A DNA stretch of 64,000 nt, taken from UHGV virus genome UHGV-1384413. One strand, given 5' to 3'. Under the pieces are notes generated by a model. The model was given only the letters and a program-made list of their open reading frames with translations. It had not been told where the DNA came from and ran no database searches. A program made the translations under genes and the position numbers. This document shows positions 15,413 to 53,206 of this stretch, in pieces. This DNA comes from a virus. Numbering within the stretch: the first letter of the stretch is position 1; every line of letters begins with the position of its first letter.

Positions 15413-15808
15413 TTACTGAAATAGTGCAGATAAATTACCTTCTGGTGGGAACTTATCTGCCAGGAATGGGGTTAGAACAGTGGCCTTCTGAATATCAGGG
15501 GTCCACTCATTGTTCAGAACATCCCAGTAGTACGCAATGTTACTGTGTGGGTGCCGCATTACGAACTTTTTCCCTTCGTAGTCAGTTGAAACCTCTACAG
15601 AAGAAATAACAACAGAGTCTTCAAGGGTTTCTTCATAGAAAGATCCACCCTCAAATTTCCAACGAGATGCAAGAGCTCCTGCCTTGAACGCTGCAGATAA
15701 CGGACTGTCTGCAAGAACATACATTTCTTGCACTCTGTCACTGCGATCTTTGCTTCTTACATTGTATACAGTATCCGAGCTATACTCAACACGGTATAGA
15801 CTTACCAT
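15413..15808 (-). CDS. hypothetical protein, paralog family A (HYW...WTP motif)
   Basis: Shares C-terminal block with ORF 17615-18013. Confidence 0.55.
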   Translation of the reverse strand: MVSLYRVEYSSDTVYNVRSKDRSDRVQEMYVLADSPLSAAFKAGALASRWKFEGGSFYEETLEDSVVISSVEVSTDYEGKKFVMRHPHSNIAYYWDVLNNEWTPDIQKATVLTPFLADKFPPEGNLSALFQ

Positions 15809-16499: not shown

Positions 16500-16769
16500 T
16501 TATTCCTCTACAATCTCATACACATCAGGAGTTACAATCAACTCTTCTCCGTTACCCGGTGCAACAAACACCACCAAGCCTTCAGGTGTGTGCTTTTTAG
16601 CCATCTCGATAACATCTTCTCGCAGAGCTGGCTCCATCAGATCAAAGCCTTCACCCAGGGCATCACGAACCACCTTCATATAGTCCACTGGTTGTGCTTC
16701 AACAATCATGCCTTCAACCAGTCCACAGTTTTTGTCTGCCAGCTCAGTTTTGAATAATTTAATTTTCAT
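16500..16769 (-). CDS. hypothetical acidic protein (89 aa)
   Basis: ORF-track ORF. Confidence 0.5.
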   Translation of the reverse strand: MKIKLFKTELADKNCGLVEGMIVEAQPVDYMKVVRDALGEGFDLMEPALREDVIEMAKKHTPEGLVVFVAPGNGEELIVTPDVYEIVEE

Positions 16770-16795: not shown

Positions 16796-16897
16796 TTAAT
16801 AGCCGTAACCTAACACATTAACTACAACTACGATTGCAAACATAATTTCAAAGCATGCAATCTCTACATTTGGGACTAATTTCTTAATCATACCCAT
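16796..16897 (-). CDS. small membrane peptide (33 aa)
   Basis: ATG with GGAGAATGAGGTG RBS; hydrophobic; below ORF-track cutoff. Confidence 0.3.
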   Translation of the reverse strand: MGMIKKLVPNVEIACFEIMFAIVVVVNVLGYGY

Positions 16898-16906
16898 TGT
16901 AGCACC

Positions 16907-17224
16907 TCATTCTCCAAAGTCAATCTTTACTTTGCCTTTCCCCTTACCTTTCTTTCCACCACATTTAGCCAACTGACGTGCTGCAACATCTACCATACGG
17001 TCAGTTGCCTCGTAAGCATCACTGCCTTTAGCTTTGGCAATAACTTCTTTTCCGGAAGTGTCAAAAATGAACGCCATAACTTCCTGGTGATCATTTTCAA
17101 CTTTTACACTCACACGTGCATAGTTGGCAGAGGGGTGCAAACGCTCCAGCTTAGACATTTTGTGGGAAATGAAAGACACCATACCTTCAGTGATTTCTAC
17201 GTTGCCAGTGATTTCAATTTGCAT
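16907..17224 (-). CDS. hpf: ribosome hibernation promoting factor / RaiA-family protein
   Basis: MQIEITGNVEITEG N-terminus and DAYEATDRMVDVAARQLAK C-terminal block match the HPF/YfiA family pattern; ATG with AAGGA RBS. Confidence 0.75.
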   Translation of the reverse strand: MQIEITGNVEITEGMVSFISHKMSKLERLHPSANYARVSVKVENDHQEVMAFIFDTSGKEVIAKAKGSDAYEATDRMVDVAARQLAKCGGKKGKGKGKVKIDFGE

Positions 17225-17231
17225 AACGTGT

Positions 17232-17262
17232 TCCTTTTAAAGAAGAGGGAACCAAACCCTCT
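17232..17262 (-). terminator. rho-independent terminator
   Basis: AGAGGGA-ACCAAA-CCCTCT hairpin followed by T-rich tract on minus strand. Confidence 0.6.
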
Positions 17263-17306
17263 TTGAAAACAATGATACTAAATCTGAAGCGTTGTGTCAA
17301 CAGTTT

Positions 17307-17614: not shown

Positions 17615-18013
17615 TCAGTCTAGCTTTTCTTCAACAACCCCATAACTTGGGGCAGAGTCAAGAGCTTTCTGGTTTAAAAGTGGCGTAGCAGAATCTGCAA
17701 ACGGTGTCCAAGTTTTTGTTCTGGCATTCCAGTAATGCTTCACTCTGGAATCTGGATGCACTATAACAAAAACTTTTTCACTTGTCAACACATTAATTTC
17801 TTCTACACCCTTGCTGATAATTTCTCCGTCATAGCCACCAGTCTGGTATCCTTCGTACCAGGTTCTTGCATATGCATAGCCAGCCTGCCAGCATGCAGCC
17901 TCCTCCGAGGTGGAGACTACGTAGAAGTCTTTCTCAAATTCTGGGATACGCCCTTGCTTTACGCTCCAAGACCCGCGAATTTTCATTGTAACTTTGAACA
18001 GTTTATTTTTCAC
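17615..18013 (-). CDS. hypothetical protein, paralog family A
   Basis: VIVHPDSRVKHYWNARTKTWTP block parallels 15413-15808. Confidence 0.55.
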   Translation of the reverse strand: MKNKLFKVTMKIRGSWSVKQGRIPEFEKDFYVVSTSEEAACWQAGYAYARTWYEGYQTGGYDGEIISKGVEEINVLTSEKVFVIVHPDSRVKHYWNARTKTWTPFADSATPLLNQKALDSAPSYGVVEEKLD

Positions 18014-18025
18014 AACGGTTACCCC

Positions 18026-18280
18026 TCACAGCTCTACAATCTCTGCATCTGACCCTGCCCCAAAGGCATAATAGGATTCTTCCCCGAAATAATATTCCGG
18101 TGCACCAGCAGCGATCAGGTCTGATCCCAAGATAAACACCACGTTGTGGCCTACATAACTGTGATGTTGCCGCACAGGATCATCCCACGGCAACCCTTCA
18201 AAGTATACCGCAGGAACGACCTTTCCATTCAGGAAGGATTGTCCCAAGTAGACGTTAGAATCAAGAATTTTAACCTTCAT
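18026..18280 (-). CDS. hypothetical protein, paralog family B (DLIAAGA motif)
   Basis: MKVK N-terminus and GSDLIAAGA block shared with 18270-18497 and 21805-22053. Confidence 0.55.
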   Translation of the reverse strand: MKVKILDSNVYLGQSFLNGKVVPAVYFEGLPWDDPVRQHHSYVGHNVVFILGSDLIAAGAPEYYFGEESYYAFGAGSDAEIVEL

Positions 18281-18497
18281 TCTCGTCCTCCACTATCTCT
18301 ACATCCTCACCAAGGGCAAAGTTGTAGGTCCACTGACTGTCAAAGCAGTCCTGAGATGCACCAGCGGCAATAAGATCTGCACCTTTTATTTTTAAAAGGT
18401 CAGGATAATCTTCGTTAGGGATAGCGGTAAACACTTTCCCCACTAAGGGCTCCTGACCAATATAGAAGCTTGAATCTAAAACTTTAACTTTCATCAA
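18270..18497 (-). CDS. hypothetical protein, paralog family B
   Basis: MMKVKVLD and GADLIAAGA blocks. Confidence 0.55.
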   Translation of the reverse strand: MMKVKVLDSSFYIGQEPLVGKVFTAIPNEDYPDLLKIKGADLIAAGASQDCFDSQWTYNFALGEDVEIVEDENEG

Positions 18498-52394: not shown

Positions 52395-52469
52395 GCCCTG
52401 TTAGCTTAGTGGATAAAGCAGCGGCCTTCTAAGCCGTTGACACTGGTTCGAGTCCAGTACGGGGTGCCA
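52395..52469 (+). tRNA. tRNA-Arg (anticodon TCT)
   Basis: Manual cloverleaf: acceptor, D, anticodon loop CTTCTAA, T-loop TTCGAGT, CCA encoded. Confidence 0.8.
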
Positions 52470-52473
52470 AATT

Positions 52474-52560
52474 GGGGAGTTATCCCGTAGAGGTAGCGGT
52501 GTAGACTGTAAATCTATTGTCATTGCGACTCGGGTGGTTCGACTCCACCACTCCCCACCA
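52474..52560 (+). tRNA. tRNA-Tyr (anticodon GTA), long variable arm
   Basis: Acceptor GGGGAGT/ACTCCCC, anticodon loop CTGTAAA, T-loop TTCGACT, CCA encoded. Confidence 0.75.
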
Positions 52561-52674
52561 AATTTACATTTTTAAATGCATAAATTATACAGATAATGAC
52601 ATTGATATTTATCGTCGTTTATACTAGTCACTAACTGCTCGAAAATCAGTGTCATTATCAGTGTAATTTATAAA

Positions 52675-52765
52675 GGAGAGTAGGGAGCAATGGTGCTCAA
52701 GCGGTCTTGAAAACCGTCCCATTGAGGACGACTTGATGATGGTTCGATTCCATTACTCTCCGCCA
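52675..52765 (+). tRNA. tRNA-Ser (anticodon TGA), long variable arm
   Basis: Acceptor GGAGAGT/ACTCTCC, anticodon loop CTTGAAA, 20-nt variable arm, CCA encoded. Confidence 0.8.
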
Positions 52766-52863
52766 TATTGTTAACCTTGTAATTAAGCGAAAGCCGGAAG
52801 CAGAACCGGATTATCAAATGTTACAGTCGTCATCGCCGACTAGCAACATGGTTAACATTATTC

Positions 52864-52960
52864 GCTAGGTAAGCCCTTTGGCAAGGGCGAGGATTTTTAA
52901 TCCTGAAAATAGACGAGGTAGTCGTTGAATACATAGGTGGTTCGATTCCATCACCTAGCA
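52864..52960 (+). tRNA. atypical tRNA-like gene (possible anticodon TTT) with about 30-nt variable region
   Basis: Perfect 7-bp acceptor stem, D-arm and T-arm; anticodon stem only 4 bp; no CCA encoded. Confidence 0.45.
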
Positions 52961-52966
52961 CCTTTT

Positions 52967-53042
52967 GCTGATGTAGCACAATTGGCAGTGCAATTGATTT
53001 GTAATCAATAGGTTGCAGGTTCAAGTCCTGCCATCAGCACCA
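52967..53042 (+). tRNA. tRNA-Thr (anticodon TGT)
   Basis: Canonical cloverleaf, anticodon loop TTTGTAA, CCA encoded. Confidence 0.85.
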
Positions 53043-53043
53043 T

Positions 53044-53118
53044 GGCCCTGTAGCTGGAAGGTTCAAGCAAGCGACTCATAATCGCCAGACGGTGGTTCAA
53101 TTCCACCCAGGGCCACCA
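53044..53118 (+). tRNA. tRNA-Met/Ile2 (anticodon CAT)
   Basis: Acceptor GGCCCTG/CAGGGCC, anticodon loop CTCATAA, T-loop TTCAATT, CCA encoded. Confidence 0.75.
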
Positions 53119-53129
53119 AATAATAAATA

Positions 53130-53206
53130 CTCCGCGTAGCTCAGCTTGGTAGAGCGCCTGATTTGGGATCAGGAGGTCGAGTGTTCGAATCACTCCGTGG
53201 AGACCA
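53130..53206 (+). tRNA. tRNA-Pro (anticodon TGG)
   Basis: D-arm TAGCTCAGCTTGGTAGAGC, anticodon loop TTTGGGA, T-loop TTCGAAT, CCA encoded. Confidence 0.8.

Follow-up and report, generated by a model that had tools for sequence, protein, structure and literature searches.

A phage-encoded member of the HPF/YfiA family

The window, a stretch of 64,000 nucleotides of viral DNA (UHGV-1384413), encodes at positions 16907..17224 of its minus strand a genuine member of the HPF/YfiA (Ribosomal_S30AE) superfamily. The coding sequence is complete, with an ATG start, 105 codons and a TGA stop, and was assigned from the list of open reading frames together with matches to Pfam PF02482 and NCBIfam TIGR00741. 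A sequence-only reading of the window had placed a phage HPF/RaiA homologue with a Lys/Gly-rich tail at exactly this interval and had left the strand unstated; the open reading frame is real and lies on the minus strand, and plus-strand translation of the interval gives an unrelated sequence with no meaningful reading. The translation carries MQIEITGNVEITEG... near its start and ...DAYEATDRMVDVAARQLAK, followed by CGGKKGKGKGKVKIDFGE as its ending, and the HPF-like N-terminus and C-terminal block quoted in that reading are present as described.

The Ribosomal_S30AE profile matches residues 3-88 on profile positions 1-83 of 88 with an E-value of 1.9e-12 and a score of 48.2 bits against a gathering score of 23.7, the positive outcome of the profile search by which the sequence-only reading proposed to check its assignment, and the HPF/YfiA family model TIGR00741 scores 46.7 bits, above its cutoff of 40.9. 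Scores on the narrower equivalog models fall below their cutoffs: 55 bits against 125 for NF007780, which describes E. coli-type/gamma-proteobacterial short HPF, and 18.7 bits against 158 for the RaiA/YfiA model NF007654. A phmmer search against the PDB returned E. coli HPF (2RQL, 4V8H and 6H4N) as the best matches with E-values of about 1e-11, whereas YfiA entries scored just 0.17-0.2, and in a multiple alignment the window protein shares 41% identity with E. coli HPF and 23% with YfiA. Judged by these identities and by the two equivalog scores, the protein is nearer to HPF than to RaiA. Its likeness to HPF is, on the PF02482, TIGR00741 and phmmer results, far above chance. The low NF007654 score and the 23% identity to YfiA indicate that the RefSeq product name 'RaiA' is a family-level label only. 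All family-invariant residues (G7, K23, A63, D69, Y71, A73, D75 and R83 in E. coli HPF numbering, K23 being K22 in the window protein) are present, as they are in a second phage lineage whose protein is 64% identical. The protein belongs to PHROG 12469, which is labelled 'unknown function', and is weakly related (E=1.9e-6) to PHROG 8990 (S30EA).

The gene is a rediscovery of a known one, and both its family and the main hypotheses about it are already in databases and the literature. Over the 4 kb around it the window matches more than 100 rV5-like coliphages (genus Vequintavirus) at 91-96% identity, and 118 phage records encode a protein of at least 95% identity under the names 'sigma 54 modulation factor', 'ribosome hibernation promoting factor', 'RaiA' or 'hypothetical protein'; some records call the true HPF gene 'ATP-dependent protease La type I'. 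In rV5 (DQ832317) the gene is ORF144, annotated in the GenBank record since 2006 and noted there as similar to a Klebsiella sigma-54 modulation protein. Its product, ABI79209, is an orthologue 99% identical to the window protein, from which it differs at a single residue (N56 in rV5, T56 in the window copy), and with the same neighbours and the same promoter nothing functional sets the window copy apart. Mizuno et al. 2019 (Nat Commun 10:752, PMC6375957) listed ABI79209 among virus-encoded ribosomal proteins, and Mathieu et al. 2020 described hpf as an auxiliary gene in five further rV5 phages. No functional follow-up on the phage HPF after 2019 was found in the searchable literature.

Predicted fold and C-terminal tail

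An AlphaFold2 model built from 122 sequences has a mean pLDDT of 82 and consists of a folded S30AE core (residues 1-88; 16961..17224, minus strand; pLDDT 80-94 by block) and a Lys/Gly-rich C-terminal tail (residues 89-105, GGKKGKGKGKVKIDFGE; 16910..16960, minus strand). The core is modelled with strands at residues 2-7, 33-43, 46-55 and 60-67 and helices at 13-29 and 70-89, giving the topology beta-alpha-beta-beta-beta-alpha in the order expected for the HPF/YfiA superfamily. In a Foldseek comparison with the PDB the top 36 matches were all HPF, YfiA or pY, with target-normalised TM scores of up to 0.94; the model superposes on V. cholerae HPF with an rmsd of 0.9 Å and on the E. coli HPF of the hibernating 100S ribosome (6H4N) with one of 1.1 Å. 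The structure prediction thus agrees with the profile search, and between them the two support the proposed phage-encoded HPF/RaiA homologue with its Lys/Gly tail.

The tail was delimited by pLDDT and charge count. Residues 91-105 have a pLDDT of about 40 and are predicted to be disordered, and the last 17 residues carry a net charge of +4, compared with +2 for the end of short HPF and -4 for the tail of YfiA. The tail is near-invariant within Vequintavirus, and the 64%-identical lineage has SKSKGIDKRTAKWDY in its place, which is different but basic too; the aligned gamma-proteobacterial HPFs end in KHKEKL-type tails without Lys/Gly runs. Tandem Repeats Finder (TRF) found no slippage-prone tandem repeats in the DNA under the tail.

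The ribosome-contact surface

Published HPF structures describe a basic track on helix alpha2 (K80, R83, K87, K89, K91 and K93), a pair formed by H/R55 and E60 against the C-terminus of uS9, K26/Q29/Y30 near 1496-1498 and A790, T53/H62 on m2G966, a further contact at D75, R33 and K93 on the E-site tRNA, and H95 stacked on G693. The phage protein retains K26, E60, D75, R83, K87 and K91 of these, has R for Q at position 29, and has I at position 62, akin to V62 of P. aeruginosa. K80, which is a lysine in 119 of 119 aligned gamma-proteobacterial HPFs, is replaced by V in the window protein and by T in the second lineage. Other contacts are altered as well (K89 to G, H55 to D/F, R33 to S, Y30 to L and T53 to F), and K93 and H95 are each replaced by G flanked by lysines, in a tail whose alignment register is uncertain by one residue. 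The strictly conserved gamma-proteobacterial contact set, comprising the alpha2 basic track, the H/R55-E60 pair and K93/H95, is therefore present only in part in the phage protein. Changes affect about half of the contact positions described in the structures, a pattern that points to a partly remodelled ribosome-contact surface.

Compared with E. coli short HPF (YhbH), with which it shares the family invariants together with K26, D75, R83, K87 and K91, the phage protein is one residue shorter in the beta1-alpha1 loop and one residue longer in the beta3-beta4 turn, and where the C-terminus of E. coli HPF touches the E-site tRNA and G693 it has the 17-residue Lys/Gly tail instead. YfiA/RaiA (protein Y) has the same fold and presumably occupies the same site. 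Both YfiA and the phage protein possess a C-terminal extension beyond the length of HPF and lack K89 and H55, but the tail of YfiA is acidic and that of the phage protein basic and Gly-rich, and YfiA keeps K80 whereas the phage protein does not. Given that YfiA, with its longer tail heading towards the RMF site, binds the same site without K89 and H55, the loss of these two residues weakens the case for binding rather than excluding it.

Evolution and selection

A full HMMER pass over 1.84 billion representative proteins gave one match below 1e-10, P0004, which is about 64-65% identical to the window protein; a word-indexed protein search had given five close relatives, and the distances to cellular HPFs reported here come from the full HMMER pass. 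P0004 is encoded on contigs of which the longest are ~125-137 kb, with the same gene order around HPF. This lineage (L003-L006, e.g. GCA_012894635.1 AATLQU010000010.1) shares with known Vequintavirus only patches of 81-88% DNA identity, has 40-64% protein identity in the HPF region, and has no counterpart at that level in the searched phage collection; an assembly labelled E. coli contains one copy. Cellular HPFs among the 1.84 billion representatives are at most 44% identical to the window protein, and the nearest are Enterobacterales-type short HPFs, which fits a gamma-proteobacterial origin. The 'relatively recent' transfer from the host suggested previously (PMC6375957) is unsupported by these distances, the best cellular identity being 44% and that to E. 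coli HPF 41%. The more divergent HPF homologue of Cronobacter phage GAP32 has been described as a separate acquisition (PMC6375957).

An IMG/VR scan for the locus returned two loci, and orthologue DNA was taken from individual records. Among 11 Vequintavirus alleles the mean dN is 0.019 and the mean dS 0.365, giving a dN/dS of 0.053, and HPF is under strong purifying selection in Vequintavirus, as constrained as its best conserved neighbours. Across the deep split to the P0004 lineage the gene is still syntenic and is the best conserved among the neighbours compared, with 64% identity against 40-60% for the others. A decaying remnant is ruled out by the dN/dS of ~0.05 and by conservation across the two lineages.

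The alleles of V18, nomo and Murica read ITGNNVEITE, identical to E. coli HPF, where the window allele is one Asn shorter. Two records carry disrupted copies: in YP-6 (L010 1501-1512) codon 4 of HPF is changed from GAA to TAA and the record annotates a shortened coding sequence of 91 amino acids, and in Murica (L014 1501-1800) a frameshift within the Lys/Gly tail gives a product of 99 amino acids. These may be sequencing errors, or they may be natural knock-outs of a gene that is dispensable in culture.

Promoter and leader

A sigma-70-type promoter, TTGACA-17 nt-TATCAT, lies upstream of the gene at 17300..17272 (minus strand) and begins 7 nt past the stop codon of the upstream gene. In a consensus scan it matches at 11 of 12 positions, and the rV5 record DQ832317 annotates it as 'Sigma70-type promoter P144' for ORF144. 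Across 11 Vequintavirus alleles the -35 hexamer does not vary, the -10 hexamer is TATCAT or TATTAT, and TTGACA is retained in the divergent lineage too. The sequence-only reading had given the gene a promoter of its own and a promoter-proximal place in an array of small early genes without known function. The former holds at the level of consensus, and the latter agrees with the surroundings of HPF, which are small open reading frames without Pfam matches; early expression is probable in so far as sigma-70 promoters are of the host type.

A Shine-Dalgarno-like sequence, AAAAGGAA, was read at 17231..17238 (minus strand), 6-7 nt before the ATG, and is conserved in the alignment. Folding of the region places a 7-bp stem-loop, AAGAGGG-7 nt-CCCTCTT, at the start of the predicted 5' leader (17243..17263, minus strand), with an MFE of -9.9 kcal/mol and a z-score of -0.94 against shuffled sequences. 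A stem forms at this position in 11 of 11 Vequintavirus alleles, with paired changes in YP-6, and is absent from the divergent lineage. Given the z-score and this absence, the stem-loop carries little weight as a regulatory element and is treated as a weak, optional feature.

Possible function

The published test of this gene frames any account of its function. When rV5 HPF was expressed from pBAD24 in E. coli, its peptides were found in the crude extract, whereas none were found in 70S and 100S ribosomes purified under high-stringency salt, and there was no discernible change in 100S, in cells not reported as stationary-phase; the authors named the stringency of the salt wash and the growth phase as possible causes of the negative result (PMC6375957). 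Other members of the same catalogue of phage-borne translation genes, which includes pelagiphage bS21, Salmonella phage bL12 and the HPF of GAP32, behave differently: bS21 and bL12 incorporate into ribosomes, whereas incorporation of rV5 HPF was not detected (PMC6375957). The sequence-only reading had suggested that a phage HPF could dimerise or silence host ribosomes or protect ribosomes during takeover. Its family assignment stands, its functional proposals are supported in part at most, dimerisation is disfavoured by these results, and silencing and protection are left as candidate roles. E. coli HPF together with RMF promotes 100S formation, which was not seen on expression of the phage protein, and YfiA gives inactive 70S rather than 100S, so the published result would fit a YfiA-like outcome over an HPF-like one.

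The best explanation, to which we give somewhat less than an even chance, is that the phage protein is a salt-labile occupant of the decoding channel that parks idle ribosomes as 70S in the manner of YfiA. A short-HPF gene derived from the host would have been resident in rV5-like coliphages for a long time and host RNA polymerase would transcribe it early from a sigma-70 promoter of its own. The product, with its S30AE fold and about half of the E. coli-type HPF contacts retained for the decoding channel of the 30S subunit (the path of the mRNA and of the A- and P-site tRNAs), would bind vacant host 30S and 70S, more weakly and with greater sensitivity to salt than host HPF, and its flexible polybasic tail may follow the mRNA path in the direction of the E and RMF sites. 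The effect would be to park and shield idle ribosomes as monomeric 70S rather than to push them into 100S dimers. YfiA-like parking would account for the retention of the invariants under selection, for the altered periphery and for the lack of additional 100S, and salt-labile binding possibly accounts for the negative mass spectrometry after salt washing. That same negative result also counts against it, given that the peptides were present in the lysate. In addition, several contact residues, K80 among them, are altered, the score falls far under the cutoff of the equivalog model for E. coli-type HPF, laboratory growth may not require the gene if the YP-6 and Murica changes are not sequencing errors, and an early block of the decoding site would hamper phage translation as well.

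Mizuno et al. 2019 (PMC6375957) proposed that a viral HPF might act as a competitor of the host factor and so keep ribosomes from dimerising, and a version of this proposal is possible but doubtful on the present evidence: the phage protein would act against hibernation as a weak, reversible competitor of host HPF, YfiA and RMF for the same site, with the tail over the RMF site averting shutdown into 100S or locked 70S and leaving ribosomes free for phage mRNAs in starved or stationary hosts. A competitor with a fast off-rate would fit the loss of K80, K89 and H55 and an association with ribosomes that is salt-labile or absent. The long basic tail is similar in geometry to the tail of YfiA, which is thought to exclude RMF in this way, and a promoter read by host RNA polymerase would make action possible from the start of infection. 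Expression in E. coli, however, brought no visible drop in the small 100S fraction, albeit in cells not reported as stationary-phase (PMC6375957), and any occupant of the A and P sites would itself be inhibitory. It is also conceivable, though unlikely, that the protein is no hibernation factor in the sense of the host but a re-engineered HPF, turned by its weakened core contacts and polybasic tail into a transient competitor that displaces or excludes either host HPF, YfiA and RMF or ribosome-directed defence nucleases, and so keeps ribosomes usable in starved gut hosts; if true, this would constitute a viral counter-measure against ribosome shutdown. A still smaller probability attaches to a protective plug that fills the A and P sites of idle ribosomes during infection and shields 16S rRNA, mRNA or tRNA positions from abortive-infection nucleases of the host or from starvation RNases. 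Hibernation factors are reported to block the entry of ribonucleases into the ribosome (PMC7913689), which speaks for the preferred reading as well, and HPF is reported to antagonise RNase R-mediated degradation (PMC8406268), but the idea is purely inferential, has no known defence system that it would counter, and is likewise at odds with the negative result in ribosome fractions (PMC6375957).

The negative mass spectrometry would also be accommodated if the protein did not bind ribosomes at all and the S30AE fold and polybasic tail had been exapted for another RNA or protein target, such as a phage or host RNA or a component of a defence or toxin system. We consider this improbable, although several observations agree with it: about half of the contact positions are altered, including the otherwise invariant K80; no protein among the cellular representatives exceeds 44% identity, which suggests long divergence within phages; and the PHROG is one without an assigned function. 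What weighs against exaptation is continued purifying selection, in the two phage lineages alike, on the family-invariant residues, among them R83, K87, K91 and D75 of the RNA-facing helix; had the ribosomal site been abandoned, such constraint would be hard to explain. The gene context, in which all neighbours lack a known function, suggests no alternative partner. YfiA-like parking is retained as the preferred reading.

Phage genes copied from the translation machinery of the host are rare, and this one sits in a common and easily grown group of E. coli phages with uses in biocontrol and therapy cocktails. Selection maintains it strongly, yet the sole published test did not detect its product on ribosomes. 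Knowing whether the protein parks ribosomes, protects them or un-parks them would reveal how a virulent phage copes with hosts that are dormant or starved.

Neighbouring genes and other observations

The 89-amino-acid open reading frame at 16500..16769 (minus strand; rV5 ORF146) is labelled 'sigma 54 modulation factor' in the ECP26, nomo, isim and ime records. It was considered as a paralogue of HPF and rejected, having no Pfam match and an hhalign probability of 0.1% against the HPF alignment, and the label is accordingly a propagated annotation error. A second candidate relative, the 1160-amino-acid repeat protein P0006, matches residues 35-81 with an E-value of 1.3e-8 by way of nine repeat copies and is an artefact.

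Two pairs of paralogues lie in the vicinity of HPF, all on the minus strand: 15413..15808 and 17615..18013 encode products of 131 and 132 amino acids that are about 28% identical, and 18026..18280 and 18270..18497 encode products of 84 and 75 amino acids that are about 42% identical. Several neighbours of HPF have a common MK(I/V)K... start and an acidic ...E(I/V)VE end. Beginning 9 nt past the HPF stop codon, a strongly hydrophobic open reading frame of 33 amino acids (MGMIKKLVPNVEIACFEIMFAIVVVVNVLGYGY; 16796..16897, minus strand) has its own GAGGTG Shine-Dalgarno sequence within the 3' end of HPF and is 85-97% identical across Vequintavirus. The 64%-identical lineage lacks it and has only 83 nt between HPF and the gene that follows.

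Eighteen records named 'UNVERIFIED Campylobacter phage' (MG0656xx, e.g. L011) encode this HPF with 96-99% identity, and their sequences are those of Vequintavirus genomes; the Campylobacter host label looks doubtful. Elsewhere in the window, a cluster of seven tRNAs at 52395..53206 (plus strand) comprises Arg-TCT, Tyr-GTA, Ser-TGA, Thr-TGT, Met-CAT, Pro-TGG and one tRNA-like call, the last of which (52864..52962) is 99 nt long and has an unassignable 4-base anticodon (atcc).
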